This document shows, piece by piece, positions 3,578 through 57,976 of a stretch of 64,000 nt of DNA. A program made the position numbers and the translations under genes. Where the stretch lies: the NCBI GenBank assembly GCA_041671225.1, contig JBAZBY010000001.1, positions 30,338 to 94,337 of the forward strand, given 5' to 3'. A model generated the notes under the pieces. That model searched no databases. It worked only from the letters and a program-made list of their open reading frames with translations, and was not told where the DNA came from. The DNA comes from Patescibacteria group bacterium (GTDB taxonomy: Bacteria > Patescibacteriota > Patescibacteriia > JBAZBY01). Position 1 is the first letter of the stretch; each line of letters starts with the position of its first letter.

Positions 3578-4189
3578 TCAGCCAACACCCGGGATGGGGG
3601 TGTCGCCGAGGTAGAGATACCCCGGCGGGATGACTAGGTATTGGCGCTCGCTGCGAGACAGCTGCGTCGGGATGCGGATGCGCATACCCTGATGCAGGAG
3701 CCCCACAACGGAAGCCACGGAAGGAAAGTGCGCATTGCTTGCCCAATTCATGACGTTCCACTGCTGGGAGCTCATCGCACATGTTGTTGGAATCTCCGCA
3801 TCGTCAGCGACCACGACGCGGACGGTGTCTCCCTCGGTGCTGTAGACCACCATCAGGAGTTTACCCTTTGGGATCACGGTGATTGCCGAGGCGACTTTTC
3901 CGTCATCAGCTCCGGCGATCGCCCCAATGGCAGCACCGGGCCATCCGAAGAAGAGCCCACCAATGATGGCGCCACCGGCGGCACCATCTGACCCACCGCC
4001 GCCTTGAGACTGGGCTGTGAACAAGGTGTCGGCGCCAGGCATGTAGGCAAAGCCCAGCAAGGTGGCGTCGATGGTGTTCTCCGCCATCAAAACACTTCCT
4101 TGCTCCCTTCCCTCCCCAACCGAGAGAATCACCACCACAAACGCCGCGAGGAGTACAAAGATCACCAGAGAAGCAACCAAACGACTCAT
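3578..4189 (-). CDS. hypothetical glycine-zipper-like membrane-anchored protein
   Basis: 203 aa with an N-terminal TM/signal anchor and a Gly-rich segment (GGGGSDGAAGGAIIGGLFFGWPGAAIGAIAG). GGAGGG Shine-Dalgarno 7 nt upstream of the ATG. Confidence 0.55.
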   Translation of the reverse strand: MSRLVASLVIFVLLAAFVVVILSVGEGREQGSVLMAENTIDATLLGFAYMPGADTLFTAQSQGGGGSDGAAGGAIIGGLFFGWPGAAIGAIAGADDGKVASAITVIPKGKLLMVVYSTEGDTVRVVVADDAEIPTTCAMSSQQWNVMNWASNAHFPSVASVVGLLHQGMRIRIPTQLSRSERQYLVIPPGYLYLGDTPIPGVG

Positions 4190-8736: not shown

Positions 8737-8841
8737 CGTTCGTTGCTCTTTTAATGCCAAAGTGGCGAGAGAAGGGCAACGCGGCACTCCAAAGAAAGGA
8801 CGGCGATGGCACTGGAAGTTGTTTTGAGGGAGGGAACCTAC

Positions 8842-9534
8842 ATGGTAAATGTAGAGTTCCGCCTTCGCACACGATTGCATGGTCGATGGGACCGGAGGCA
8901 AGTCAGAGCCTATACTCTATCGGAGAAGCTGGACTTCCCCTGCATACTGAGGGGCGATCTGGTGATCCACCCCCGCGGCTCGCTGCGGTCCCTGCGCCAC
9001 CGCGGACAGGAAAAGCTCCTCCCGCTTCTGCAGGAACTCGTGAAACGGCTGGATGTGCAGCTCGCCACGTTGCCGGAGCAGAAGGATCCCCGCTGGTGGG
9101 AAATCTTCTACCTCTGTGTGCGCTTCCCTGAGGAACTGCCGATGATGAGCGAACCGTGGGTGGTGCACTACCCCAAGGACGGTGTGATGGATCTTACCAT
9201 CGCATCATTCGGGCCCCTGGTTCCGCAGTTTGCGCCGCACCTTTCGGCGATGGCGCAGACCATGGAGGCGTGCATCCTCGCAAGAGGGTACGCATCTGTG
9301 GCGGATGCGCGCGATACGATCATCCGGGCGATAGACGCCGCTCCGCATGGGCGTCCACAGAAAGCGCTTCGGATGTTCTTTGGCATCGAGCCAGAGGGCA
9401 GAAACAGCACTCGCTGGATCGGCGACGTCATCGGTGTGCGCGAGGCGACGATTCGCATCTATATTCACGACGCGCTCCGTCCGCTGAACCTCACCCTGAA
9501 CGAGGCCAAGTACGCGCTCGGCCTCGTCGTGTGA
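8842..9534 (+). CDS. hypothetical protein with C-terminal sigma-70 region-4-like HTH
   Basis: ORF track gives 8806..9534. An internal ATG at 8842 is preceded by GAGGGAGGG with 8-nt spacing, so 8842 is the likelier start. C-terminus WIGDVIGVREATIRIYIHDALRPL resembles an HTH. The gene lies in a GC-rich (about 62%) block. Confidence 0.55.
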   Translation: MVNVEFRLRTRLHGRWDRRQVRAYTLSEKLDFPCILRGDLVIHPRGSLRSLRHRGQEKLLPLLQELVKRLDVQLATLPEQKDPRWWEIFYLCVRFPEELPMMSEPWVVHYPKDGVMDLTIASFGPLVPQFAPHLSAMAQTMEACILARGYASVADARDTIIRAIDAAPHGRPQKALRMFFGIEPEGRNSTRWIGDVIGVREATIRIYIHDALRPLNLTLNEAKYALGLVV

Positions 9535-9730: not shown

Positions 9731-10189
9731 TCAGAGAAGTCCGGGGAACGCACTCCGCGCCTCCGCACACCAGCGCGTCACGAGTGACGCATCGGCGGCA
9801 GGATACTGATCCTTGCCACCGGCAAGCGCGAAGATGCGGCTTCCGCGCAGTTCCTTCGGGACGTCGGGCGTCACCGGAATGACGTGCCAGTGCACGTGGT
9901 GGAAGCCCTTGGCGGCGTTGAGAGACAGCACATACTGGCTCTCGCAGCTAAACACGTACTCCTTCACCAGCCGAACCGCGGCCGGGAGCAGCACACCGAA
10001 CTCCGCCCATTCCGGCGGCGTCAACTCGGCAATGGTCTCCTTGTGCTCCTTGAGCACGAGAACGACCCAACCGACGAGAGCCACTGGATAGGCGTGTTCC
10101 AACGCCCAGTGCTTGCCCGTGTAAATGGGCGGCCCGGGCGAGATACGATCCTCACCTGAAATCGACTTGCACGAACGACACGCGTCCAT
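9731..10189 (-). CDS. HIT (histidine triad) family hydrolase
   Basis: Histidine triad HHVHWHVIP. GGGAGG Shine-Dalgarno 6 nt upstream of the ATG. Confidence 0.8.
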   Translation of the reverse strand: MDACRSCKSISGEDRISPGPPIYTGKHWALEHAYPVALVGWVVLVLKEHKETIAELTPPEWAEFGVLLPAAVRLVKEYVFSCESQYVLSLNAAKGFHHVHWHVIPVTPDVPKELRGSRIFALAGGKDQYPAADASLVTRWCAEARSAFPGLL

Positions 10190-44294: not shown

Positions 44295-44691
44295 GGGGAT
44301 GTTCAAAAGTCGCAAGTTCATTACAAGACGTTAGCGCGAATCGGAGGTGCTTTATACTCCGTAACCCATAAAGCAAACAGAAGTGCAAACTTCATTACAA
44401 AGGTGAAGAATACTGTCGCGAATGCTTTCAGCGTTCCACAGCTCTCACCTATTGCTGTCGCCTAAACGCGATAGCCATCCGCTTCAGGATTCCTGATACT
44501 GAAATCCGGGTGCCATTCATCAGGATCGGTAGTCGGTTGTCTCGACTGAGTACCTAAAATTCCGAGACGATGTGAGAAGGGGCTTTTGGTTGTTTCTTAC
44601 CTTTCTCACTTACTTTTAAAACAGCCTACATTCGTAGATGCAGACGTCCGAAATGAGTTTCACGCGGGTGAAAGACCCGCCATCTCCACCA
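44295..44691 (+). ncRNA. ssrA: transfer-messenger RNA (tmRNA, ssrA)
   Basis: Immediately downstream of smpB in a 400-nt stretch with no ORF of 60 aa or more. The 5' GGGGAUG (44295-44301) pairs with the 3' CAUCUCC (44681-44687) to give a 7-bp acceptor stem with a G3.U wobble. Discriminator A plus encoded CCA at 44688-44691. T-arm GCGGG-UGAAAGA-CCCGC. In-frame tag candidates begin with Ala-Asn at 44373 or 44418 and share a TAA at 44463-44465 (for example ANAFSVPQLSPIAVA). Confidence 0.75.
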
Positions 44692-46326: not shown

Positions 46327-46404
46327 TGGCGGACCCGACCGGATTCGAACCGGCGATCTCCTCCGTGACAGGGAGGCGTGTTAACCAGGCTACACCACAG
46401 GTCC
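46327..46404 (-). tRNA. tRNA-Asp (anticodon GUC), CCA encoded
   Basis: Hand-folded cloverleaf: acceptor GGACCTG / CGGGTCC (one G.U); D-stem GTGT / ACAC; anticodon stem CCTCC / GGAGG with loop CUGUCAC; variable loop 5 nt; T-arm GCCGG-TTCGAAT-CCGGT; discriminator G; CCA. Confidence 0.9.
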
Positions 46405-46609: not shown

Positions 46610-46792
46610 ATGAACATCGCGCCACAATATAGCGAGGTGCTCAACTTCTTGCTCGATCACGGGCCACTCATCTTCGGGGCTTTCCTCGTACTCTCGGCCA
46701 CTGACGGCAAGCGGTTCGGACCAGTCCGATTTCTTGCACTCGTAGTAGGGTTAGCACTTGTTGTATCAGGTATGTCCGAATTTGTTGGCTAA
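46610..46792 (+). CDS. possible small 2-TM membrane protein (weak)
   Basis: 60-aa hydrophobic ORF (MNIAPQYSEVLNFLLDHGPLIFGAFLVLSATDGKRFGPVRFLALVVGLALVVSGMSEFVG). It ends just before a bidirectional terminator, which supports plus-strand transcription, but no Shine-Dalgarno sequence is visible. Confidence 0.3.
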   Translation: MNIAPQYSEVLNFLLDHGPLIFGAFLVLSATDGKRFGPVRFLALVVGLALVVSGMSEFVG

Positions 46793-46825: not shown

Positions 46826-46859
46826 AAAAGGAACCGCCCTCGGGTTCCTTTTCGCTTTT
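46826..46859. terminator. bidirectional intrinsic terminator
   Basis: AAAA, then GGAACCGCCC-tc-GGGTTCC, then TTTTCGCTTTT. Ends the plus-strand small ORF and the minus-strand 1110-aa gene. Confidence 0.65.
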
Positions 46860-49800
46860 ACTGTATCACAATCCCGCTCGCAGAGAATGGAATGACATTT
46901 GCAATGCCAGAGAGCGGGCCGGTGACGATGTCATCCACGCCATCACCATTCACATCACCAGAAGCCACGCTTGTGCCATACCGCGTGGTTTTGCCGTAGG
47001 CAAAGAACTGCGCGTCAACATTCCCAAATGCATCAAGTGAGCGTACATGCGGACCGCCAACCGCCGCCGGTACGACAATAATCTCATCAAAACCGTCCGC
47101 ATCCACGTCCCCTGCTGCCACAGAGAGCCCAATGCGGAACTCCTTGGGGTAAGCGAAGAACTGGCCTTCCAAGGTGCCACGCCCGTCAAAAATGCGTACA
47201 TGCGGACCGCCAACATTCAAGGGAACAATGATGATCTTATCCCGATTCGTGTCATCAATATGCCCCACCGCAACAGAAAGCCCGAGCCGATACCAAGCGG
47301 GATATGCAAAGAATTGCCCGAGTACATTCCCATTGCCGTCGAAGACGCGCACTTGCGGACCTCCGCGCTCACGGGGCGTCACGACAATCTCGTCTTTGCC
47401 ATCGCCATCCACATCGCCGGCGGCAACCGACGCCCCAACGCGAATATTTGATGCGAACGCGTAGAATTCACGCTGAAGATTTCCGCGAGAATCAAAGATA
47501 CGAATAAGCGGATAGTTCCCCACTTCCGTTCCGGTGATGATTTCAGCAATACCATCACCATCAATATCGCCAGCCGCGATGGTTGTTCCACCCCGGTACG
47601 TTGAATCATATGCAAAAAATTGACCCTTCACGCTTCCCTCTTTTGAAAACACGCGAACCTGCGGGCCACCAGAACCTTTTGGCACAGTAATAAGATCATC
47701 AATGCCATCGCCGTCGACATCACCAACGGCAACATTCACACCACCCTGAAAAAAAGTGGGGTACGAAAGAAAACCATCGACCACATCAAGGGTAAAGGTT
47801 CGTGTTGGTATGCTTCCGTCTGCCTCCTGCAGCGTAAACGAAACAGGAAAGATATCTGTCTGCCCGTCCACATTTGTTACCTTCACGTCATACCACCCTG
47901 TTGGCATCTGCGCGATAGGGATCACAATCGTCGCACTGGTATCGCTCTTGATATACACCGTTGCCGGGTACGGGCCGAACTGGGCCTGCATCCCATGACG
48001 AAAGCCAGTGCCACTCATATCCAAATAGGCCTCCGAAGCGGTATGACTTGCCTTCTTGATAGTATTTGGCCCAATGCCGCTCACTTCTGGTGCGTCTTCT
48101 GCAAACGGTGCAGGACCAGTGATATCCACGCGACGAATAAGATCGCTCCATTGATCTGCAACATAAAGCGTGCGGCCAGTGTGGTCTACTGCCAGTCCAG
48201 AAAGATTATTGAACTCCGCCGTACTCGGGGCGCCGTTCTCAAAACCACGCACACCCTCACCGCTGATCAGCTTAGAAACATTTGCCGTCAAATCATACAG
48301 CCGGATACGATGCGAACCATTGTCAGTGATATAAAGGATATTGTCATCAAACTCCACATAGAGTGGAAAGGAAAAAACGGCATTGTCGCGTACGCCCTCT
48401 AAATAACCTGCACTACCACGGCCTGCAATGGTGACAACGTCCTGCGTGGCGATCTCAATACGACGAATGGTGTGATTATTGCGATCAGCAACGTAGAGAT
48501 AGTTCCCGTTACGGTCGATGGTGATGCCCCACGGCGCATTAAACTTTGCATTGCTGCCCGTGGCATCCGCATTCCCCTTGCTTCCGCCTGCAACAAGTGT
48601 CGTTACGCCGGTGGAGATGCGAATCTTACGAATGCGATTGTTTGACGTGTCCGTAATATACAACCACGCATCATCTGGGCTAATGGCGATATCCGTAGGA
48701 TTATCAAAACGCGCCGCTGAACCCGTACCCTCTGCATACCCATTCCCCGGACCACCGGTGTTGAAATCCCCACCTCCTGCCACAAGCGAGGTCATCTTAC
48801 TCGCAATGTTTACCTTACGGATGCGATTATTCCAATGGTCAACCACATAAAGATTCTCCCCCGCTGAATCAATCGTGATACCGGATATATTTGAAAAACG
48901 GGCATCCTCGCCAGAGAATCCCTCGCCAATATAATCATCAATACTGCTGCCAACAATCCAGCTCCCATCAACGCTTCCTGTTGCGCGCGTCATCCGACGA
49001 ATTTTATTATTTTCAGCAAGATAGATATACGTCCGATCCGGGCTTATCACCATATCATGTGGCCGACCAAGAAGCGCACCGGTTCCTGTGCCGCTCGTAA
49101 ATCCAAAACGATCGTTGCCGGCAAAACGAACATCATCACCATCTGACGTTGCAAACTGCACAACCGTTGAGAGCCCTGCCATGGCAACGTAAAGCTTATT
49201 ATTATATGCAGCAATGCCTGCAGGATAATTCACAACCCTCATTCTTGCATCACTCACAAAAAGCTCCGTTGCACCGGTGCTTGTATTCACTTTACGGATA
49301 TAATCCGTGAGTCCATTACCATCACTCACATAAAGCGTACTCCCAACCTTCGCAATACCCCAGAGATTTTGAAACCGTGCCGTGCTCGCAGCGCCTTCTT
49401 TGTATCCCTTCGTGCCAGAACCAGAAAGCGTGCTCTTGATACCGCTCCGACGATCAACCTTCATGACCTTGTAGAGTCCTGCATCCGCAACATAAATAGT
49501 CACGTCAGTCACAACGAGCTTCTTTGGTTCACTAAGCCCTGTTGTGAGCGTTGTGACGGAACCACCATTCGTGCTGACGAAAAGTATCTTCCCGCTGCCG
49601 GTCTCCGCGATATACAGCGTCGTGTTGTAGACAGCAAGCCCCTCCGGCCCAGAAAGATTTGAAAGGAGCGTTGAAACAGAACCGCTTGGCGTGATCTTCC
49701 GGATGGCATTGTTGCCGGTATCCGCAACATAGATGTTGCCGGAGCTATCGCGGGCGATGCCGCGTGGCAAACCAAACTCCGCGCTGTCTGCCGCGCCGTT

Positions 49801-50190
49801 GCGCTCACCAAACGCGCCCGTGCCGGCATACGTGGAAATCTTTCCATTTGTCCCAACTTTACGAATAACATTATTGTAGGTATCTGCGATGTAAAAATTG
49901 CCACTGCCGTCAGAAAGCACGTCCTCAGAAAAATCCAAAAGCGCAGACGTTGCCGCCTGCCCGTCGCCGCTATATATTTTTCCAACATAGGTCTCAGCTT
50001 CACCATATGCATGCGCTGTTCCCCCAAAAACAAAAAATGCCATGAAAGTGATGGCTATGATAGGAATGATGCGCTGCGATTGAGTGAAATACACCCCCAT
50101 TGCCATTACACTATAGCGCATTCTGAGACATTTTTCAAGCAAAAAAAATCGGGAGGACATTCGCTTAGCAGCGAAGCCTCCCGAGTTCAA
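46858..50190 (-). CDS. giant secreted/surface protein with NHL repeats and C-terminal FG-GAP/VCBS repeats
   Basis: At least 8 NHL-type repeats (GNFYIADTYNNVIRKV, GNIYVADTGNNAIRKI, LYVADRNNHTIRRI and others) and 6 FG-GAP-like Ca-binding repeats (VGDVDGDGIDDLI, AAGDIDGDGIAEII, AAGDVDADGFDEII and others). Signal-peptide-like segment MAMGVYFTQSQRIIPIIAITFMAFFVFGGTAHA; the true start is probably internal to the ORF-track start. Confidence 0.8.
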   Translation of the reverse strand: MNSGGFAAKRMSSRFFLLEKCLRMRYSVMAMGVYFTQSQRIIPIIAITFMAFFVFGGTAHAYGEAETYVGKIYSGDGQAATSALLDFSEDVLSDGSGNFYIADTYNNVIRKVGTNGKISTYAGTGAFGERNGAADSAEFGLPRGIARDSSGNIYVADTGNNAIRKITPSGSVSTLLSNLSGPEGLAVYNTTLYIAETGSGKILFVSTNGGSVTTLTTGLSEPKKLVVTDVTIYVADAGLYKVMKVDRRSGIKSTLSGSGTKGYKEGAASTARFQNLWGIAKVGSTLYVSDGNGLTDYIRKVNTSTGATELFVSDARMRVVNYPAGIAAYNNKLYVAMAGLSTVVQFATSDGDDVRFAGNDRFGFTSGTGTGALLGRPHDMVISPDRTYIYLAENNKIRRMTRATGSVDGSWIVGSSIDDYIGEGFSGEDARFSNISGITIDSAGENLYVVDHWNNRIRKVNIASKMTSLVAGGGDFNTGGPGNGYAEGTGSAARFDNPTDIAISPDDAWLYITDTSNNRIRKIRISTGVTTLVAGGSKGNADATGSNAKFNAPWGITIDRNGNYLYVADRNNHTIRRIEIATQDVVTIAGRGSAGYLEGVRDNAVFSFPLYVEFDDNILYITDNGSHRIRLYDLTANVSKLISGEGVRGFENGAPSTAEFNNLSGLAVDHTGRTLYVADQWSDLIRRVDITGPAPFAEDAPEVSGIGPNTIKKASHTASEAYLDMSGTGFRHGMQAQFGPYPATVYIKSDTSATIVIPIAQMPTGWYDVKVTNVDGQTDIFPVSFTLQEADGSIPTRTFTLDVVDGFLSYPTFFQGGVNVAVGDVDGDGIDDLITVPKGSGGPQVRVFSKEGSVKGQFFAYDSTYRGGTTIAAGDIDGDGIAEIITGTEVGNYPLIRIFDSRGNLQREFYAFASNIRVGASVAAGDVDGDGKDEIVVTPRERGGPQVRVFDGNGNVLGQFFAYPAWYRLGLSVAVGHIDDTNRDKIIIVPLNVGGPHVRIFDGRGTLEGQFFAYPKEFRIGLSVAAGDVDADGFDEIIVVPAAVGGPHVRSLDAFGNVDAQFFAYGKTTRYGTSVASGDVNGDGVDDIVTGPLSGIANVIPFSASGIVIQ

Positions 50191-50211
50191 GAATGATCTT
50201 ACGGAACCTCC

Positions 50212-50922
50212 TCATGACGTTCGCCGTGCGTAGATGCGCAACGTCCCTTTATGCCCCCCTTGGTTCGAGATCGTCCGGCCATTGAAGATGCGGCCGGCGG
50301 ACCAGTCTATCTTCATATCCTGGTCGTAGTTGGGTCCCATCATGACAGGACCCGACGCGGTTGCGATGCACCTCCCTTTTTCCCCTCTCACAGGAGAGGC
50401 GGTTTTGTTCCAGGGCTTCCCCGGTTGCTTGATGCTGAGCATCAAGAAACCGCGAGCCTCGCCTGGGTCAGGGTACCACTCGTTGCGGTACGACCCCTCC
50501 GAGTTGGGCATGAACGCCCGCGGGTCACTGGGATCGGTGGTCGGCGTGGTAGGCCAGAACATCCACCCGGCGTATCCGGGCTTTTTGAGCTGCCAGCTCT
50601 TTGCGACCTGGTGAGCCTCCCAGGGCAAGCAGAAGCCCCTATTGCCCACCCACTCGGCGACCCATCCTATCTCGATGTGTGGATACGACTGCACCCACGG
50701 TAGATCCCCGTAGTAGACCACGGGGACATCGTACTCAACCTCATCGAAGAGCACGAAGTTCGCTGCGAACAGTGAATCTGATCCCTCGAAGGACACAAAC
50801 CCGGGTTCAGTGATCTCGGCCGTTCCCCTTGCGAAGAACAAGATGGCCAAGACCGTGAGCGTGATCACCCCAAAGGCGGCTGCCTTTGGGTATCTGACGA
50901 AGAGGCGCTCTCCTTTCTTCAT
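50212..50922 (-). CDS. hypothetical membrane-anchored Trp/Tyr-rich extracytoplasmic protein (GC-rich island gene D)
   Basis: Start set at the internal ATG (MKKGERLFVRYPKAAAFGVITLTVLAILFF), which is preceded by GGAAGGGG. The ORF-track N-terminus overlaps gene C. No known domain. Confidence 0.55.
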   Translation of the reverse strand: MKKGERLFVRYPKAAAFGVITLTVLAILFFARGTAEITEPGFVSFEGSDSLFAANFVLFDEVEYDVPVVYYGDLPWVQSYPHIEIGWVAEWVGNRGFCLPWEAHQVAKSWQLKKPGYAGWMFWPTTPTTDPSDPRAFMPNSEGSYRNEWYPDPGEARGFLMLSIKQPGKPWNKTASPVRGEKGRCIATASGPVMMGPNYDQDMKIDWSAGRIFNGRTISNQGGHKGTLRIYARRTS

Positions 50923-50935
50923 TTTGCGCCCCTTC

Positions 50936-52036
50936 CTATGCTGCATGCTGCAGGACAAAGTGCCAGAGGCCGCTGCCCAACACGACCACCACGACCACCG
51001 CAGCGAGAAGCCGCAGTGGGTCCTTTGGGTTCTTCTGCGCGATGGCAATGCCTATCGCCAGAATGCCAACCGAGGCCGCCCCCACAAACGCGTTGAAGGG
51101 ATTGGCCGGGTTGGGGGCTGTGGGTGCAGTGATGGTAGTACCGGTATGAAGCGCTGCATCCGTACCAGACGCAACCACTCCAGACGCGATGAGAAAAAGC
51201 AGGACGATGATCGCCGTGCAGATTCCCAGGCTGATGAGTGCAGCCCGGCGCGCGAACTGAAGGGTAAGTGCCCCCATCTTCTTGAAGGAGAGTGCTCCCG
51301 CAATGAATGAGACCCACCAAACGGTTCGCACGATCAGGTAGATCAATCCGAGGCCTGGCATCTTGAGCAGGGCGTTGTTCAACACCCAGAATTGCCCAGA
51401 TGCTTCCGCGCTTGCCCGGAGGTCTTCAGACGCACCCATCGCCCCTACCTCATGCATGTAGGGATTGACGAGTTTGATCGTGAAGACGATCCCAGCAACT
51501 ATCATGAGCCAGGCCATGATCTTGTACGGAACCTCGCTCGTCCAGCCTCGCAAGTAGCCGATGCCAAAACCTCCGCAGAAAGCGAGGATCGCGAACCAGA
51601 AGGCCACAGAGTTGTTCTCCGCGTTGAACAGATGGCTGATCACGTGAAAGAACAACATACCCGTCACGAACGCGACGACCAGCCGGATCACCTTATCTGC
51701 CACGTTCCTGGCATCTTCCGGAACCTTGTCCCGTAGGATGCCGTTCGCGAAATCCATGCCCTTGGCAAAGGGGATGCAGATCGCCAAAGCCAGAATGGCC
51801 AAGACAAAATGCACGCCCACGAGGCCGAGGGAGAGATTCTGCAGGCCATGGTTCACCGTGTAGAGGTTCACCATGGCGTCGATCATGAGAAGCGCGAACA
51901 CGACGAAGAGCAGCCTGCCGCTCATCACCGTTCGGACGCCGTCGTAGAGCCACATAAACATGGCCTCTACGGCATCCCAGAGAATTTTCGTTACCGTAGC
52001 GCGGTCTTCGGTAACCGCAGCGTTCTCTTCTGTCAT
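50936..52036 (-). CDS. hypothetical polytopic membrane protein, about 9 TM (GC-rich island gene C)
   Basis: 366 aa with strongly hydrophobic segments throughout and no recognisable motif. Confidence 0.6.
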   Translation of the reverse strand: MTEENAAVTEDRATVTKILWDAVEAMFMWLYDGVRTVMSGRLLFVVFALLMIDAMVNLYTVNHGLQNLSLGLVGVHFVLAILALAICIPFAKGMDFANGILRDKVPEDARNVADKVIRLVVAFVTGMLFFHVISHLFNAENNSVAFWFAILAFCGGFGIGYLRGWTSEVPYKIMAWLMIVAGIVFTIKLVNPYMHEVGAMGASEDLRASAEASGQFWVLNNALLKMPGLGLIYLIVRTVWWVSFIAGALSFKKMGALTLQFARRAALISLGICTAIIVLLFLIASGVVASGTDAALHTGTTITAPTAPNPANPFNAFVGAASVGILAIGIAIAQKNPKDPLRLLAAVVVVVVLGSGLWHFVLQHAA

Positions 52037-52071
52037 TGGACGTTCCTTTCTTGCCCACCAACGGTGGGACG

Positions 52072-52674
52072 CTAGCGAACCGGTGCCCGACGACGCTTTG
52101 CCGCCAGGATCCGCTGGTGGAAGGTTTCCCTTCCGCGCGTGTGACGCTCGTGGAATACCACAAGACGCTCACGGCGAACCGGAGGAGCGGAAAAGAATGA
52201 GCGAGCGGATCGAATGATTTTCATCTTGATCGAGAAGGGCACGTTCTTGCCGTGCTCCTTTGCGACCAAAACAAATTTCTCTCTTGCCGCCTTCATCTCT
52301 TCCTTGCTAATGGTGCGACCGAGTTCAGCCTCGGGAATCTCCTCGCGAACGAGGATTTCCGCCATCTTCTCGGGCATGCGGCCTATTGTCTGTTCGAGGA
52401 GGAGCTCGAGTGTTTTGCCCTCAGAAAAGAATCTACTGGACTTGACCAGTACGAAATGGAGAATGTTCTCCAATCCAACTCCTCCGAGGAGCATTTCCGT
52501 CTCAAACTCTCGTCTATCCTGGTTGGCCCTGATGGCCAGCGTGCGATACGCACCAGGCGCAAAGCCCCGGAGGAGCCCCAACAGGAACTCACTCACGGGC
52601 CTCGCAATCATTCCTGCGACCGCAGGAATACCGGCATCGAAACGCCGGAGAAACTGCGATGAAGACAACGGCAT
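52072..52674 (-). CDS. hypothetical soluble protein (GC-rich island gene B)
   Basis: 200 aa, charged, Arg-rich C-terminus, no recognisable motif. First gene after the candidate promoter. Confidence 0.5.
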   Translation of the reverse strand: MPLSSSQFLRRFDAGIPAVAGMIARPVSEFLLGLLRGFAPGAYRTLAIRANQDRREFETEMLLGGVGLENILHFVLVKSSRFFSEGKTLELLLEQTIGRMPEKMAEILVREEIPEAELGRTISKEEMKAAREKFVLVAKEHGKNVPFSIKMKIIRSARSFFSAPPVRRERLVVFHERHTRGRETFHQRILAAKRRRAPVR

Positions 52675-52793
52675 GGCCGTTTCCTTTCTCTGTGCGGTGC
52701 ACAGGTTTGAGGTGTAGATAGGTAGAACGAGAACGCGTATGATCCGATTTCAATTGCTTAAGTTGTCAAACAGCGAGCAAAAACCGGACACCG

Positions 52794-52822
52794 GAACATA
52801 CCAAAGAAATACATTTTTGTCA
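52794..52822 (-). promoter_or_regulatory. candidate sigma70-like promoter for genes B-C-D (and possibly the NHL gene)
   Basis: Minus-strand TTGACA (reverse complement of 52817-52822), 17-nt spacer, TATGTT (reverse complement of 52794-52799). Confidence 0.4.
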
Positions 52823-52831
52823 AGTATTGAA

Positions 52832-52869
52832 AGAAAAAAAGAAGAGGGGTTCGCGCGAGCCAAACCCCT
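52832..52869 (-). terminator. intrinsic terminator after gene A
   Basis: Stem GAGGGGTT (52843-52850) / AACCCCTC (52862-52869) with a 10-nt loop, followed on the minus strand by UUCUUUUUUUCUUUC. Confidence 0.7.
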
Positions 52870-52919
52870 CTTGCCGCATGCTGAGTACAGCAGCGGGAAT
52901 GAGATGTGCAATCCCTCCC

Positions 52920-54395
52920 TCAACGGGAGCGGGTGGAAGAAGAGTCCTCCTGTGCGTGAAGCCAGCCCTCCTGCTGACCCAGCTTCTCCCACGCCTTCCG
53001 AAGGTCGGATGGCGCGGAATCCGCCGAAACTGCCTGGCCTCTGCCAGCCTCCATGTCCATCCGGGCAGTGCCGGGTCCGCGCTGCACGCGGAGCGTGACA
53101 TGATGTCCAGTGGACTTCATGAAACCCTCACGGCGCCCGAGCTCCTCCCAGGCCTTCCGGAGATCCGTGGTCATCCCCCCCTTGCGGAAGGGATTCTCGG
53201 TTTCCTCACGTTCCCTCGTAAGACGCGCGATGTCTTCAGCGGGATCATAAGCCCCGCCGCCGACCACGCGCGCCGCGATCCATACCGATTCATCGTGGAT
53301 CGCATCCTGCTTTTCCTGCGGCATCTCCGAATGGAAAACGCCGAGCAGGTGGTTCACCGGATGCGCGAGCAGAACTGCGAGCAGAGCGCACGCAGTGGCG
53401 ACGGTTGACCAGCGCACGTAGCGCCGGCGCCAGAACGTGCTGGCCAGCCAGTACGTGAGGCCCACGACGACAGAACGCCAGAACGAACGCGGCAGGGGTG
53501 GATCCTCGCCTTCAGGGAGCGGACGCTCTACGGGTTCGCCGGAACCGGCGAGCCACGCGGCGCGTACGTCACCCCAAAAGGACTCCACCGGACGCGGCAT
53601 GGGCTGCGGATCGAGGTCACCGAGTCCGCCAGCCAACCACTCGCGGTGGATGTGTCCGGGATAGCCCTTGAGAGAAATGATGATGTCACGTTCCCTCTCG
53701 GTCTTCGCCAGCCGGATGGTTTGGAACGGCGGTTCGCCAAAGCGATCTGTCGTTCCTTCGTGGCGATCCTCCGTCTCCGCGTTCGCGTCGACGATCTCCA
53801 CCACGATCCCCTCGAGCGGCTCATTGGTCTCACTGTTGGAGACCTGAATGATCGGGACAAACCTGCGCTGTCCCTGCTCAAAGGACACCCAGAGCTTAGG
53901 GATGATGGCCTGGCGAGGCCCGATCACTCCCTTGATGTTAAGGTCCGGATCGCTCTCCAGGCTGATCATCACGGGGATGTTCATGGCCTCGGAGACCGGA
54001 ACGCTCACCGAGAACATCGCCTTTCCTTCGACATCAAGGACGCTCGTGTTCCCGTACGGGAACGTCACGCCCGGATCGCGAAGGTCCATCTGCGCCGTAC
54101 CACGCATAGGCTCGTCGCCCAGCATGAACGTGGCGCAGATGTCGACGAGAACCACGCCGGGGCGGTTCTCGCTTTCCGTCCTCCGCAGCACCTCAAAGTG
54201 GATGCTGGGACGGCTGGTGCGGGGGGGTGCGGGTTGGGGAGCGCGCGGAGGCGGGGTATCGCGACGATCGTCGCGAGGCTCCGCTCTCCTCGGTTGGTCG
54301 CGGCGCGGGCCACGACCTCCTCTGCGTCCTCCCTCACGGGCGGGCGCTTCTCCTCCTGCTGCGCCGGGCGTACCGGCGGGGCTGTCTTCGGGCAT
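52920..54395 (-). CDS. hypothetical protein with Arg/Pro-rich disordered N-terminus, two TM helices and C-terminal tandem DLRKAWE(E/K)LG repeats (GC-rich island gene A)
   Basis: 491 aa; AAAGGAG Shine-Dalgarno upstream; about 70% GC; long antisense ORFs 53646..54542 and 53848..54711 are artefacts of the high GC content. Confidence 0.6.
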   Translation of the reverse strand: MPEDSPAGTPGAAGGEAPAREGGRRGGRGPRRDQPRRAEPRDDRRDTPPPRAPQPAPPRTSRPSIHFEVLRRTESENRPGVVLVDICATFMLGDEPMRGTAQMDLRDPGVTFPYGNTSVLDVEGKAMFSVSVPVSEAMNIPVMISLESDPDLNIKGVIGPRQAIIPKLWVSFEQGQRRFVPIIQVSNSETNEPLEGIVVEIVDANAETEDRHEGTTDRFGEPPFQTIRLAKTERERDIIISLKGYPGHIHREWLAGGLGDLDPQPMPRPVESFWGDVRAAWLAGSGEPVERPLPEGEDPPLPRSFWRSVVVGLTYWLASTFWRRRYVRWSTVATACALLAVLLAHPVNHLLGVFHSEMPQEKQDAIHDESVWIAARVVGGGAYDPAEDIARLTREREETENPFRKGGMTTDLRKAWEELGRREGFMKSTGHHVTLRVQRGPGTARMDMEAGRGQAVSADSAPSDLRKAWEKLGQQEGWLHAQEDSSSTRSR

Positions 54396-54440
54396 GCCGA
54401 ACTCCTTTCGCCGGAACTCCGGCTGGGTTGGAGAGTGCGC

Positions 54441-54470
54441 AAAAAAGAAAGCCTTCTCTGCGCGGCTTCA
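54441..54470 (-). terminator. intrinsic terminator after the comEC MBL gene
   Basis: Minus-strand hairpin GAAGCC-gcgcagagaa-GGCUUUC followed by UUUUUUGCG. Confidence 0.5.
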
Positions 54471-54538
54471 GAAACTTCTTCCAAATTGTTCAAGGTGCCT
54501 GCAATGCAACAAGAACAAGACATCAAGAACATCACAAC

Positions 54539-55381
54539 CTAACAGAAAAGGCAGGCTTTGTCAAGGTGAACAGGCTGTAATGGCGCATCGAGAAAAAAGA
54601 GAATACTTCCAAAATGATCAGTACGGAGGTATGGAATGCCCTGATGATGTAATATATCCAGCACTTCCTGATGTGGATGCCCAAAACGATTCTCTGCGCC
54701 ACAGGAAATAATGGCGAGCTCAGGAGCAATGTTTTTAATAAATGCAGGGTCAGAAGATGTGTGCGAACCATGATGGCCAAGCCGCAAAATATCAGCATGT
54801 ATATCTGGATTCCTTGCGAGTATCTGCTGCTCCACTGTAATCGACGCATCGCCTGTCAAAAAAAATGATGCATCACCTGTCAAAAATTGCAGAACAATAC
54901 TCATCTCATTTGAGTCTTCACTATCGTTCTCCAAAGGCCACAGCACAACAATCGATGCACCATCAAAAAATTGCAATCTCCTTCCGGGTACGGGTCGCTC
55001 AATGGCAATGCCGCGTTCCTGAATGTTTTGTCTGAATGTCTCCCACGCCCCGGGTTTGTCCGATGCGATCCAAAACTGATCGAAGGTGTACCGCTCCATA
55101 AGCTCTCCAAATCCAGCATAGTGATCCGTATCCGGATGCGTCACCACGGCAAGTTCAATAGTCCGGTCAAAATAAGGAAGCACGCGATCCAACTGCTCAA
55201 CAACGCTGCGGTCTGGCCCGGCATCAATGAGAATAGTCGTGTTGTCCGCAAGTTGAATAACTGTTGCGTCACCCTGCCCCACATCAAGAAAGGCAATGAA
55301 GGCCGCGGGGCGCCCAAGTTGCTTGCTACCAAGTGTGATAAAGATAGCAAGCACGATTGAAAGTGCTACAAACTTACGCAT
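54539..55381 (-). CDS. ComEC C-terminal-type metallo-beta-lactamase-fold hydrolase (separate ORF)
   Basis: DVGQGDA signature and HxHxDH-like HPDTDHYAG. Begins with its own signal/TM segment MRKFVALSIVLAIFITLG. The ORF-track N-terminal 41 aa overlap the upstream gene in another frame. Confidence 0.8.
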   Translation of the reverse strand: MRKFVALSIVLAIFITLGSKQLGRPAAFIAFLDVGQGDATVIQLADNTTILIDAGPDRSVVEQLDRVLPYFDRTIELAVVTHPDTDHYAGFGELMERYTFDQFWIASDKPGAWETFRQNIQERGIAIERPVPGRRLQFFDGASIVVLWPLENDSEDSNEMSIVLQFLTGDASFFLTGDASITVEQQILARNPDIHADILRLGHHGSHTSSDPAFIKNIAPELAIISCGAENRFGHPHQEVLDILHHQGIPYLRTDHFGSILFFLDAPLQPVHLDKACLFC

Positions 55382-56819
55382 GGCGCCTCCATCGCAACAG
55401 TTGAAATGCGTACACCGGCACCACCATAGCCACAACAAGCACCCAGGCGGAAAATCCGGGAACAAGCACGAGTGCATGCGGCACATGCGCAAAGCCTTCG
55501 GCAACGCGTGTCACAAAAAAGAGCATACCCTGCGCAATGCTCCCTACGGCACTACCGAGCATAGGATGGATGAGCCCAAGCAACGCCGCCACGCCTCCAA
55601 AAAGACTTGCAAGTGGTAACAACGGAACGGTGAGAATGTTTGCAAGGAGTGCAAACAGTGGAAAGGTGCCAAACGTCCAAAGGCTGATGGGGAGTGTAAA
55701 AAGAATCGCAACGATACTTGCCGCGACGGTATCGCGAAGCTCAAAAACACTCGGTAGAAACTGTATTCGTTCTGCGAGTGGCGTGCTGGCAACAACAAGC
55801 CCGACGGTTGCCAAAACAGAAAGCTGAAACCCCACATCAAAAAGCAACCAATACGGCCGGATGACAATCATCACAAACGCCGCGCACAGCAGAATATTCA
55901 TGGTATCCCCTTGCCTGCCAAACGCGCGCCCAACAACAACGAGCGCGCCCATAATCGCCGCGCGTATGACCGACCCTTCTGCACCAACAAGCAGCACATA
56001 CAGCAACACACAACCCAGTACAAGTGGTAGTGCGAGGCGGCGCTTCATCACCTTCAAAAGACCGGCTTCAACAAGCACAATCACCATAGTGATATTCCAA
56101 CCGGAAACCGCAACAATGTGTGAAAGACCTGTCTGAGAAAAAGATGTGCGGATACTTGTTTCCTGTGCGGATGCCCTGCCAAGCAGAATACCGGTAAGCA
56201 AACTTCCTTCCGGTTCCGGAAAAATGCGTTTGATGGATCCGAGAAACTGCTGCTTCACCGCAAAAAGAGGCGCGCGGATATCATCAACCGCACCGAGTTT
56301 TGTAAAAGCATACGGCCGCGAGCACGTTGCATGTACGTTCTGTCCAGCCAAAAACCATTGATAATAAAAAATCCGGCCGTTGTCCTCAATGGACTCAGGT
56401 TTGCGTATCGTACACGTTATTTTTATCTCATCAAAAACAACAACGCTTGGGAGCACAGGAAGCGAGAGGACAATCTGACCCTGCGCCTCCTGTCCGTTGA
56501 TCTGGAGTCGCCCGAGTGTTACGCGTTGCGCATCCACGCGTTGTTCCACATCCCGTGAAATCACACCCTGCACCTCAGCACGTTCATCAAACAAAAAATG
56601 CGCGGTGACACTCTCATGTGTATGAATACAGTATTGCGTCCACATGAATCCGCCAAAAAAGGCAACCGCGCCAAAAATCAAAAACATATCCACGCGGTGG
56701 CGCATAAAAGACACTGCCAACATAAAAAAACCAACTGCAAAGGGCAGCCCTGCTTCACCAAAAGCCAGGCTCACGCCGGCAAAAAAACAAAGGATGCTAA
56801 AACGAAATCGGTGGCTCAT
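55374..56819 (-). CDS. comEC: ComEC/Rec2 competence channel membrane domain (DUF4131 + Competence domain), lacking the MBL domain
   Basis: 481-aa polytopic membrane protein with the ComEC N-terminal architecture. 8-nt overlap with the MBL ORF. Confidence 0.8.
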   Translation of the reverse strand: MSHRFRFSILCFFAGVSLAFGEAGLPFAVGFFMLAVSFMRHRVDMFLIFGAVAFFGGFMWTQYCIHTHESVTAHFLFDERAEVQGVISRDVEQRVDAQRVTLGRLQINGQEAQGQIVLSLPVLPSVVVFDEIKITCTIRKPESIEDNGRIFYYQWFLAGQNVHATCSRPYAFTKLGAVDDIRAPLFAVKQQFLGSIKRIFPEPEGSLLTGILLGRASAQETSIRTSFSQTGLSHIVAVSGWNITMVIVLVEAGLLKVMKRRLALPLVLGCVLLYVLLVGAEGSVIRAAIMGALVVVGRAFGRQGDTMNILLCAAFVMIVIRPYWLLFDVGFQLSVLATVGLVVASTPLAERIQFLPSVFELRDTVAASIVAILFTLPISLWTFGTFPLFALLANILTVPLLPLASLFGGVAALLGLIHPMLGSAVGSIAQGMLFFVTRVAEGFAHVPHALVLVPGFSAWVLVVAMVVPVYAFQLLRWRRHA

Positions 56820-56874: not shown

Positions 56875-57976
56875 CTATTGCTTCTCGCGCGTTGCTGCTT
56901 GTCGACGAAGCTCTGCCTCAATAAATGGCAGAAGTGCGCCATTTAAAACCGTATCCGGATCGTTGCTTTCAAACTTCGTTCGATGATCCTTCACAAGTTT
57001 ATATGGATGCAATACGTAACTGCGTATCTGGTTTCCCCATGCCGCTTCGTGATATTCACCACGCAACTTTTCTTTTTCTGCCTGCTGCTTTTGCAACTCG
57101 ATCTGATGAAGTTTAACACGAAGAATCTTCATCGCTGTTTCTTTATTCTGTTTTTGTGAACGTTCGTTCTGTACGCTCACCGTAATATTCGTTGGGATGT
57201 GAACGATGCGCACCGCAGAATATGTCGTGTTCACGGACTGGCCGCCATGCCCAGAGGCCATAAATGTATCAATACGAAGTTCTTTCTCATCAATGGGAAT
57301 CTCAGCATCCAACTCCTCCAATTCCGGCAGTACCTCGCACAGCGCAAATGACGTGTGACGCAAATTGTCCGCGTTAAAGGGTGAGATGCGCACAAGTCGA
57401 TGTACGCCGGCTTCGTTTTTTAGATACCCATAGGCATAGCGTCCCTCTACCTGCACCATCACGGACTTTATACCCGCTTCTTCACCGCGCGATTCATCCA
57501 AAATCTTTGTGCGCCACCCTTGCTGCTCGGCAAAACGCAAGAACATCCGGAGTAATATTTCTGTCCAATCCTGCGCATCCACGCCTCCTGCGCCAGCATG
57601 AAGGGCGAGGATGGCATTATGCTCATCATACGATTCAGAAAGCAACACAATGAACTCAAAAGTCTCAAAACGCTTCTCAAGATCCGTCAATTGTGCTTCC
57701 AATTCATCGATGAGTGACGCATCATGTGATTCTGCAAAGGTCACCAAATCCGCGGCATCCTTCTCAAGCGCGGTAAATGCTTCGATCTCCTTTTTGAGAT
57801 CACTCAGTTGTTGCGAAACTTTTCGCGCGTGCTCTTGGTCGTTCCAAAACGCAGGCTCAGAAACCTGATCTTCCAACTCTAACAGTTTTTGCTTCTTGCC
57901 AGGAAGGTCAAAGATACCTCCCAGTCTTCTGCATTTTCTGTGTTAATTCTTTTGTACGTGTGTTGAGGTCTGCCAT
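56875..57976 (-). CDS. prfB: peptide chain release factor 2, with programmed +1 ribosomal frameshift
   Basis: The ORF track has only the post-shift frame (SPF and GGQ motifs). Upstream in the 0 frame, ATG 57976..57974 encodes MADLNTRTKELTQKMQKTGRYL and ends at TGA 57910..57908, inside the canonical shift site GGGAGG-TAT-CTT-TGA-C. A +1 shift at CTT restores the RF2 frame. Confidence 0.93.

Follow-up and report, generated by a model that had tools for sequence, protein, structure and literature searches.

A clade-restricted set of four fast-evolving, envelope-type genes in the variable comEC-NHL/FG-GAP slot of a Patescibacterium

The window considered here, meaning the whole stretch of DNA analysed, comprises 64,000 nucleotides (nt) from a Patescibacteria group bacterium (contig JBAZBY010000001.1 of assembly GCA_041671225.1). 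Its minus strand carries four co-directional open reading frames (ORFs), named A to D, which occupy positions 50212-54395 and are found both in the ORF list and among the gene calls. Read along the minus strand, the order is prfB, comEC (as two ORFs), A, B, C, D and a large gene for an NHL/FG-GAP protein, hereafter the NHL gene; comEC and the NHL gene are the two anchors of the slot in which A-D lie. NCBI locus tags from this metagenome-assembled genome are WCV86_00415 and WCV86_00420. The genes and the spacer of the region, with lengths in amino acids (aa), are the following:

55374-56819, minus strand: comEC ORF with the Competence domain (ORF list and gene calls)
54539-55381, minus strand: comEC C-terminal ORF with the metallo-beta-lactamase domain (Pfam Lactamase_B, 6e-17), upstream anchor of the slot
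54396-54538, minus strand: comEC-A intergenic leader, 143 nt, with a ribosome-binding site AGGAG 8 nt before the ATG of A
52920-54395, minus strand: gene A, 491 aa (ORF list and gene calls)
52072-52674, minus strand: gene B, 200 aa (ORF list and gene calls)
50936-52036, minus strand: gene C, 366 aa (ORF list and gene calls)
50212-50922, minus strand: gene D, 236 aa, with an ATG start 13 nt past the stop of C
46858-50106, minus strand: NHL/TIG/FG-GAP secreted beta-propeller protein, 1082 aa (Pfam NHL 2.9e-35, FG-GAP 1.6e-23), downstream anchor of the slot

For D, an alternative longer frame that begins with TTG overlaps C, and the ATG start was adopted. The NHL protein carries a signal peptide.

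The same arrangement is present in two further Patescibacteria contigs used as comparison loci, L002 (SRR22388171) and L003 (SRR22387818), which carry prfB, the two-ORF comEC, A, B, C, D and the NHL gene in the order of the window; the gene order from B to the NHL gene, proposed as something to look for elsewhere, is thus found again. Between the window and L002, identity amounts to 83% for prfB, 66-67% for comEC and 77% for the NHL protein, to 64% for both A and C, and to 35% for B and 31% for D; between the window and L003 it is 52-54% for comEC and 73% for the NHL protein. The ratio of non-synonymous to synonymous divergence (dN/dS), calculated by the Nei-Gojobori method for the window and L002, is 0.38 for A, 0.51 for B, 0.25 for C and 0.39 for D, compared with 0.04 for prfB, 0.14-0.17 for comEC and 0.10 for the NHL gene, and the proportion of synonymous differences (pS) in the flanks, 0.64-0.74, is saturated. 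The conserved order and reading frames in L002 and L003, together with ratios below 1, indicate that A-D are real genes which were already carried by the shared ancestor of three well-diverged lineages. These sequence comparisons show A-D to be under purifying but relaxed selection, to evolve much faster than their neighbours and to be vertically inherited within the small clade formed by the window, L002 and L003.

The original prediction had described A-D as four uncharacterised envelope genes without a recognisable family, and the description is borne out by their transmembrane (TM) patterns and by the lack of a match in Pfam, NCBIfam, PHROGs or PADLOC. The protein encoded by A consists, in this order, of an Arg/Pro/Gly-rich tail (residues 1-65), a beta-rich part (about residues 66-277), two TM helices (about 303-354) and a helical C-terminal region; the Arg-rich tail is disordered. 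The C-terminal region contains two copies of the motif DLRKAWE(E/K)LG (residues 411-420 and 464-473), encoded by a 41-nt direct repeat (D1) at 53125-53165 and 52966-53006 with a spacing of 159 nt. The N-terminal composition, the two TM helices and the tandem motif had all been recognised beforehand.

The nature of the beta-rich part is suggested by L003, where A is split into a soluble protein of 422 aa (P0004) and a TM protein of 216 aa (A2). P0004 scores above the Pfam gathering scores for Big_1 (37.9 bits, cut-off 34.9), CarboxypepD_reg (37.9 bits, cut-off 32.3) and DUF7382, at residues 198-250, and these immunoglobulin (Ig)-like matches are the only ones that family scans of the L002 and L003 orthologs returned. 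The A protein of the window aligns to P0004 across the Ig-like region (E 5e-11) and displays a motif typical of Ig-like domains (..T.EPL.G..V.IVDA....TTD..GE..F..I.L); in Pfam it has itself no Big_1 or CarboxypepD_reg match at E<=0.1. Since the matches in P0004 fall in the region to which A aligns, the beta-rich part of A is probably made of one or two Ig-like sandwiches.

The three remaining proteins agree with what had been predicted for them, B being soluble, C having about nine TM segments and D being anchored and rich in Trp and Tyr. B lacks any TM segment, is basic (13% Arg) and has a conserved C-terminal motif, PPVRRER...H.RH.R.R..FHQR; its L003 counterpart, of 225 aa, is tied in by profile only (E 4.5e-86 after iteration; hhalign 90.8%). 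C has nine predicted TM segments, whose loops obey the positive-inside rule with the N-terminus in and the C-terminus out, and an invariant motif, GFG.GYLRG.TSEVPYK, between TM4 and TM5; it is 33% identical to C of L003. In D, an N-terminal signal-anchor is followed by a tail of about 205 aa rich in Trp, Tyr, Pro and Gly (4.2% Trp, 4.2% Tyr), with the conserved motifs CLPWEA.QVA, PTTP, FMP.S.G, W.YPDP, NYD.D..DW and SN.GG; identity to L003 is 26-31%.

Very large collections contain hardly any further members of these families. Among 5.8 billion proteins, C has one relative besides itself (P0002, 64% identical), and a profile built from the three D sequences finds only itself and the D protein of L003. 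For A, HMMER searches of 1.84 billion representatives returned one real relative, which is P0004, together with a marginal match, a Cna-B-like repeat protein. No match to C came from pattern scans of GTDB genomes and JGI metagenomes.

Transcription of the region can be outlined from the following signals:

52832-52872, minus strand: intrinsic terminator after A (stem 52872-52842, 12 bp, then a T-run; terminator scan and folding)
52795-52823, minus strand: promoter of B-C-D, TTGACA-17-TATGTT with an upstream TG (10 of 12 consensus positions)
50141-50183, minus strand: intrinsic terminator after D, a compound hairpin CGGGAGG...CCTCCCG (stem 50183-50150, T8 at 50148-50141; folding)
50098-50138, minus strand: promoter of the NHL gene, TTGAAA-17-TATAGT, with its ATGGGG start (promoter 50138-50110, start 50100; scan and conservation)

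The terminator after A is the top terminator-like site in the 12 kilobases (kb) scanned, folds with -20.2 kcal/mol (z -2.4) and is also present in L002 and L003, and the -35 block of the promoter that follows it, ACTTGACAAA, is invariant across the three loci. Both signals had been proposed before, the terminator at 52832-52869, and both are confirmed, as the strong stem at 52872-52842 with its T-run and as the promoter at 52823-52795. The terminator after D folds with -28.4 kcal/mol (z -3.4; 0 of 200 shuffles fold as well), its stem and T-run being kept in L002 and L003. The promoter and the ATGGGG start of the NHL gene are likewise conserved in both; in all three loci the start lies 8-9 nt past the -10 box, so near that the NHL mRNA is probably leaderless.

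B and C are separated by 35 nt, C and D by 13 nt. A single promoter, short gaps, a single terminator and a gene order kept in L002 and L003, that is, all the features by which an operon is recognised in sequence, are found for B-C-D, which supports their assignment to one putative promoter-to-terminator unit. A conserved terminator followed by a promoter is found both between A and B and between D and the NHL gene, and this divides the region into three predicted units, namely A, B-C-D and the NHL gene, so that the last belongs to neither of the A-D units. The earlier proposals that B-C-D run directly into the NHL gene, and that all of them form a single co-transcribed module, are therefore not sustained: a conserved terminator and a separate conserved promoter intervene, A is a unit apart and the NHL gene has signals of its own. 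Upstream of A, the signal scan called no canonical promoter or terminator in the comEC-A spacer; the strong terminator proposed at 54441-54470 turned out to be an 11-bp hairpin of the leader (about 54463-54437) with its T-run inside the stem, and the terminator scan did not call it.

The base composition of the block is unusual. Its content of guanine plus cytosine (GC) is 59.7%, compared with 51.3% for the whole window, with 64.8% in A (local maximum 68.8%), 56.1% in B, 57.6% in C and 59.1% in D. The description of a compositionally foreign block of 62-70% GC thus holds as regards its outlier status, while the range given is reached by A only. At third codon positions the GC content (GC3) of A-D is 0.64-0.755, as against a mean of 0.558 (standard deviation 0.087) for 39 other ORFs, which places the four genes 1 to 2.3 standard deviations above it, in a range that overlaps housekeeping genes such as those for RmuC (0.705), CvpA (0.673) and MetRS (0.663). 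In the k-mer comparison that had been suggested, the block is the most deviant stretch of 4.2 kb, with the highest tetranucleotide L1 distance in the window (0.365 versus 0.14-0.21 in other 4.2-kb stretches) and the lowest mononucleotide-normalised tetranucleotide correlation (0.72 versus 0.81-0.95 elsewhere). The deviating base and oligonucleotide signature by which genomic islands are recognised is present in the A-D block.

This offset is common to the three lineages. In the window, L002 and L003 the block has a GC content of 0.59-0.62, compared with 0.50-0.57 in the comEC flanks, and a GC3 of 0.64-0.82, compared with 0.44-0.64. Since the excess has been kept in all three in spite of saturated synonymous sites in the flanks, a recent, unameliorated import is excluded, and the GC-rich composition of A-D is shown by these comparisons to be a stable feature of the genes rather than the mark of a recent import; it is either maintained or re-supplied. 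The recent horizontal acquisition originally proposed thus finds no support, given the synteny in L002 and L003, the saturated flanks and the persistent GC excess, and the lack of scars and of a donor described below.

The window contains three more ORFs without a Pfam match that are equally rich in GC, at 3578-4189 (minus strand), 8806-9534 (plus strand) and 9731-10189 (minus strand), with 60-63% GC and a GC3 of 0.69-0.77; one of them combines an N-terminal TM helix with a Gly-rich region, and another shows an HxHxH HIT-like motif. The occurrence of such orphans elsewhere in the window implies that high GC is general to the orphan genes of this genome and not specific to the block, a trait that seems to extend over the organism's whole genome.

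The interval between the two anchors, which in the window spans 50107-54538 and holds A-D, can be followed in more distant relatives. Full-length orthologs of the NHL protein (1070-1120 aa, 40-52% identity) are found in numerous Patescibacteria, among them several that bear the name Candidatus Kerfeldbacteria, and a survey of the slot, including 10 kb upstream of NHL orthologs (L007-L067), yielded 39 loci in which both anchors are visible. The comEC metallo-beta-lactamase ORF and the NHL gene are only 62-174 nt apart in six species (L009, L011, L013, L014, L026 and L050), and the remaining 33 loci have 1.9-8 kb of unrelated genes between them: DsbA-like thioredoxins in up to three copies, Lgt, YdjM, an IS200-like Y1 transposase, SPFH/Band 7 proteins and many orphans. 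Matches to the Pfam Band 7 family PF01145 are found among the slot proteins of L004, L010, L030 and L033. In the nearest outgroups, L004, L006 and L007, whose NHL proteins are 49-52% identical, the slot holds two membrane proteins with undetectable similarity to A-D; in these three and in L058 the GC content of the slot is again above that of the comEC flanks. A-D are therefore found at the same locus in the three closest lineages and are missing or replaced where the NHL protein is <=52% identical. An interval that ranges from empty to 8 kb with unrelated content is a variable slot, of which A-D represent the version carried by one small clade; they were thus inserted or substituted at the base of this clade, or diverged there beyond recognition.

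Genes for IS200-like Y1 transposases (171-197 aa) directly follow comEC at L012:5070-5606, L015:3551-4066, L025:4116-4676, L030:4068-4583, L037:2012-2569 and L063:3736-4260, and another lies between prfB and comEC at L004:2894-3487; the window contains no member of this family. Such transposases may contribute to the turnover of the slot. The comEC gene itself is split into two overlapping ORFs, one of 481 aa with DUF4131 and Competence domains and one of 280 aa with the metallo-beta-lactamase domain. This arrangement was seen in the window and in all relatives that were looked at; in L004 the two ORFs are even separated by an oppositely oriented FBPase gene.

A different pattern of conservation is seen within gene A and its leader, where two tracts stand out in a comparison with L002:

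54202-54548, minus strand: 5' conserved tract, consisting of the leader and the first about 65 codons of A (50-nt sliding identity to L002 of at least 88-98%)
52893-53211, minus strand: 3' conserved tract, consisting of the last about 100 codons of A, with both DLRKAWExLG copies, and 27 nt past the stop (same sliding identity)

The leader and both coding ends of A are about 92% nucleotide-identical to L002, whereas divergence is much higher in the centre of A and in all the genes that flank it. Differences at first, second and third codon positions amount to 0.08, 0.12-0.13 and 0.19 in the 5' tract (codons 1-65) and to 0.08, 0.11 and 0.18 in the 3' tract, as against 0.29-0.35, 0.19-0.30 and 0.34-0.59 in the centre; over the 30 terminal codons at either end, both pS and its non-synonymous equivalent pN are about 0.08-0.10. 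The leader is 92-98% identical to L002 although synonymous sites in the flanks are saturated, and its first about 85 nt are partly conserved in L003; it includes a motif, TGAACAATTTGGAAGAA at 54492-54476, which in the three genomes is found at this locus only.

A riboswitch or other leader RNA upstream of A was considered and rejected: folding is at the level of shuffled sequences (z -1.0), Rfam matches in the window are limited to a transfer-messenger RNA (tmRNA) and a transfer RNA (tRNA), and no covarying pair was found, in an alignment of two near-identical sequences that has very low power. An overlapping gene in an alternative frame (54065-54535) was also discarded, since the frame is open in L002 by virtue of nucleotide identity, its product is junk-like and the non-coding leader is equally conserved. 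Likewise, GC-biased gene conversion in a simple form finds no support as an origin of the high GC content, the conserved ends of A having a GC3 of 0.63-0.72, below the 0.71-0.83 of the centre.

In L003, A2 is barely similar to the C-terminal region of A (hhalign probability 5%), which makes deep constraint an unlikely cause of the conserved 3' end. The conserved ends could be due to recent recombination between the lineages of the window and L002, or to a function at the nucleotide level. This mosaic conservation of A and its leader is the most unusual element of the locus. Two more short stretches at least 92% identical to L002 lie at 46653-46727, in the spacer downstream of the NHL gene, and at 47100-47199, inside its FG-GAP repeats.

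A few other features of the window deserve mention. At 57907-57975 (minus strand) prfB has the canonical programmed +1 frameshift site of RF2, GGGAGG TAT CTT TGA C, which accounts both for the late start of the listed prfB ORF and for the identity of at least 90% to L002 in this stretch. The tmRNA gene is at 44295-44691 (plus strand; Rfam, 78 bits). The only tRNA, tRNA-Asp(GTC) at 46327-46404 (minus strand), is outside the NHL gene and overlaps the 5' end of the listed VanZ ORF, so that VanZ must start further downstream. Two long ORFs on the plus strand, 66-962 and 1338-2132, have unprotein-like translations rich in Cys, His and Arg and no Pfam match; they are probably non-genic, for example the wrong strand or frame of another feature.

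Patescibacteria are largely uncultured, and their small genomes are rich in orphan membrane proteins thought to mediate attachment to a host. Against this background, A-D are best read as genuine, clade-restricted genes, organised in two units (A and B-C-D) in a variable slot between comEC and the NHL gene, which would form a lineage-specific envelope module of a Kerfeldbacteria-like Patescibacterium; we give this reading roughly even weight for and against. In such a cell-envelope module C, with its nine TM segments, would be the membrane core, D, signal-anchored and rich in Trp and Tyr, may be an exposed ectodomain for binding or enzymatic activity, and the basic, soluble B could be their cytoplasmic partner. 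A would be a separately controlled protein with two TM helices that displays one or more Ig-like beta-sandwich domains. Fast divergence, a surface-type architecture and the mosaic of A would fit surface proteins of an episymbiont that face a host or phages and are reshuffled by recombination between related populations.

Several findings weigh against this interpretation. A-D gave only sub-threshold noise in Pfam, NCBIfam, PHROGs and PADLOC (LNT_N, ARA70, DarT, DUF5325), and profile searches of PDB sequences with them found nothing below E 0.1. The AlphaFold2 models have low confidence scores (pLDDT), 40.7 for A, modelled from a single sequence and used for secondary structure only, and 29.7 for D, modelled from an alignment of two sequences. 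The topology of A is ambiguous: going by the Arg-rich loop between TM1 and TM2, the two large domains should both lie outside, but a signal peptide is lacking, and the L003 counterpart of the N-terminal half is encoded as a protein of its own that has no export signal. The borders of the conserved tracts coincide with those of A, which could mean a nucleotide-level function instead of recombination, and the lower GC3 of the conserved ends leaves GC-biased gene conversion as no simple explanation. Co-inheritance is seen in three lineages only, so that it is weak evidence for a functional complex. Finally, an ancient horizontal origin of the block is compatible with the data.

This last point leads to the alternative that fares best, although we consider it rather unlikely, namely that the block is a genomic islet from a GC-richer donor inserted between comEC and the NHL gene; it is tenable only if the insertion is old and dates to the base of the three-lineage clade. 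For the phylum, genomic islands and transfers from one Patescibacterium to another have been reported (PMC12455944), which counts for an islet. The block is also the strongest compositional outlier in the window, and its slot is empty in six related species and filled with unrelated genes in others, with IS200-like Y1 transposase genes in or beside it in several lineages and with genes in sister lineages that have no detected homology to A-D. What speaks against an islet is that the block is syntenic in three lineages with saturated synonymous divergence in the flanks and an unameliorated GC offset, and that three other GC-rich orphans are scattered over the window. Moreover, Pfam, PHROG and NCBIfam gave no integrase, transposase or recombinase match in A-D. 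The check for integration scars, which had been suggested for the flanks, found none: a repeat search gave no repeats flanking the block, only short ones at chance level and the internal repeat of A. No tRNA lies at its borders in the window, the nearest being the tRNA-Asp at 46327-46404, beyond the NHL gene. No donor or viral relative of A-D was found in any collection searched; four scans of IMG/VR viral contigs gave no match, the sole PHROG match is noise (E 0.086), which lends nothing to a phage origin, and A-D have no PADLOC-DB match at E<=0.1 that would point to anti-phage defence.

Distinctly less probable is a purely vertical origin, in which A-D, remodelled by fission, would be extremely diverged descendants of ancestral slot genes; in sister lineages the latter encode an SPFH-type membrane scaffold of about 490-640 aa and, next to it, a polytopic protein (about 330-435 aa) that carries a beta domain at its C-terminus. 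The two membrane proteins in the slot of sister lineages (NHL 49-52%), and the GC content above the flanks in L004, L006, L007 and L058, would suit such an origin; so would the speed at which the slot evolves, its genes in those lineages being mutually unrecognisable by BLAST, and the different split of A already seen in L003. BLAST, however, gave no link, nor did iterated hidden Markov model searches of A-D against 160 slot ORFs from the 39 loci or hhalign comparisons with 46 slot cluster alignments, the latter of low power, since the Band_7 positive control itself stayed below 1%. The domain order of A, beta-TM-helical tail, differs from the TM-SPFH-coiled coil order of SPFH proteins, and none of A-D, A included, matches Pfam PF01145.

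We are equally doubtful about a bolder version of the envelope reading, according to which A-D would be a surface-variation or host-recognition module of episymbiotic Patescibacteria, the centre of A being swapped by way of the near-identical leader and ends and B-C-D forming a membrane complex, with the slot as a general hot spot of fast-evolving interface genes.

Least likely among the functional proposals, and quite improbable in our view, is that A-D are accessory factors of one of the anchors, serving export, anchoring or maturation of the NHL protein, or DNA uptake by comEC, for instance by binding of incoming DNA to the Arg-rich tail of A. Adjacency to both anchors is kept in three lineages, the leader of A directly adjoins the comEC stop codon, with neither a promoter nor a terminator called in between, and A does have an Arg-rich disordered tail; however, most related species possess both comEC and the NHL gene although their slot is empty or holds genes of other kinds that are unrelated, so that neither anchor needs A-D, the NHL gene has its own terminator-promoter boundary and signal peptide, and A-D evolve 2-10 times faster than either anchor. 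That the ORFs are artefacts, either chance frames in GC-rich DNA, as the long alternative-frame ORFs of the block (e.g. 54065-54535 and 53646-54542) might suggest, or an assembly chimera, is extremely improbable and, as judged from the sequences, effectively refuted by the conservation of frames, lengths and TM patterns across other samples that were assembled independently, with dN/dS below 1, by ribosome-binding sites, promoters and terminators at the expected places, and by an identical block on Logan, NCBI and JGI contigs, the longest of 1.03 Mb.

The analysis shows one such orphan set to be real, clade-inherited and fast-evolving, in a defined slot between comEC and a beta-propeller gene, so that surface diversification in the phylum can be studied at a definite locus, by comparison of genomes and within populations. 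The block also carries a caution, as a compositional outlier here does not mean a recent import.

Compared with known systems, the block resembles genomic islets, including the islands of Patescibacteria (PMC12455944), in being a compositional outlier at a fixed position between anchors, where the content varies, is orphan-rich and is missing in some relatives; unlike them, the copy of the window lacks mobility genes and att-like repeats and has no tRNA next to it, is stable in three diverged lineages and has no detectable donor. With the SPFH/Band 7 gene and membrane-protein gene of the sister slots, A-D share position, orientation, membrane products and a GC content above that of comEC (L004, L006, L007, L058), whereas sequence and profile similarity is absent and both gene number and domain order differ. 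The A protein recalls Ig-like surface proteins with Big_1, CarboxypepD_reg or MG domains or Cna-B-like repeats, since its L003 ortholog passes the Big_1 and CarboxypepD_reg thresholds and the A of the window aligns there. It departs from them in remaining below the Pfam thresholds itself, in lacking a signal peptide and a sortase/LPXTG signal, and in having its domain N-terminal to two TM helices and behind an Arg/Pro/Gly-rich tail.

Flagellin and pilin alleles are examples of surface-antigen genes in which the ends are conserved and the centre varies, and which homologous recombination reshuffles. Gene A differs from such genes in that two sequences only can be compared, no silent cassettes or variation repeats are present, the leader is conserved too and there is no homology; it is like them in that its ends are near-identical to those of L002 (about 8-19% differences over all codon positions), while the centre is 3-fold more diverged. 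The proteins encoded by A-D are new families, and orphan membrane genes in a variable slot are a familiar pattern in streamlined uncultured bacteria.

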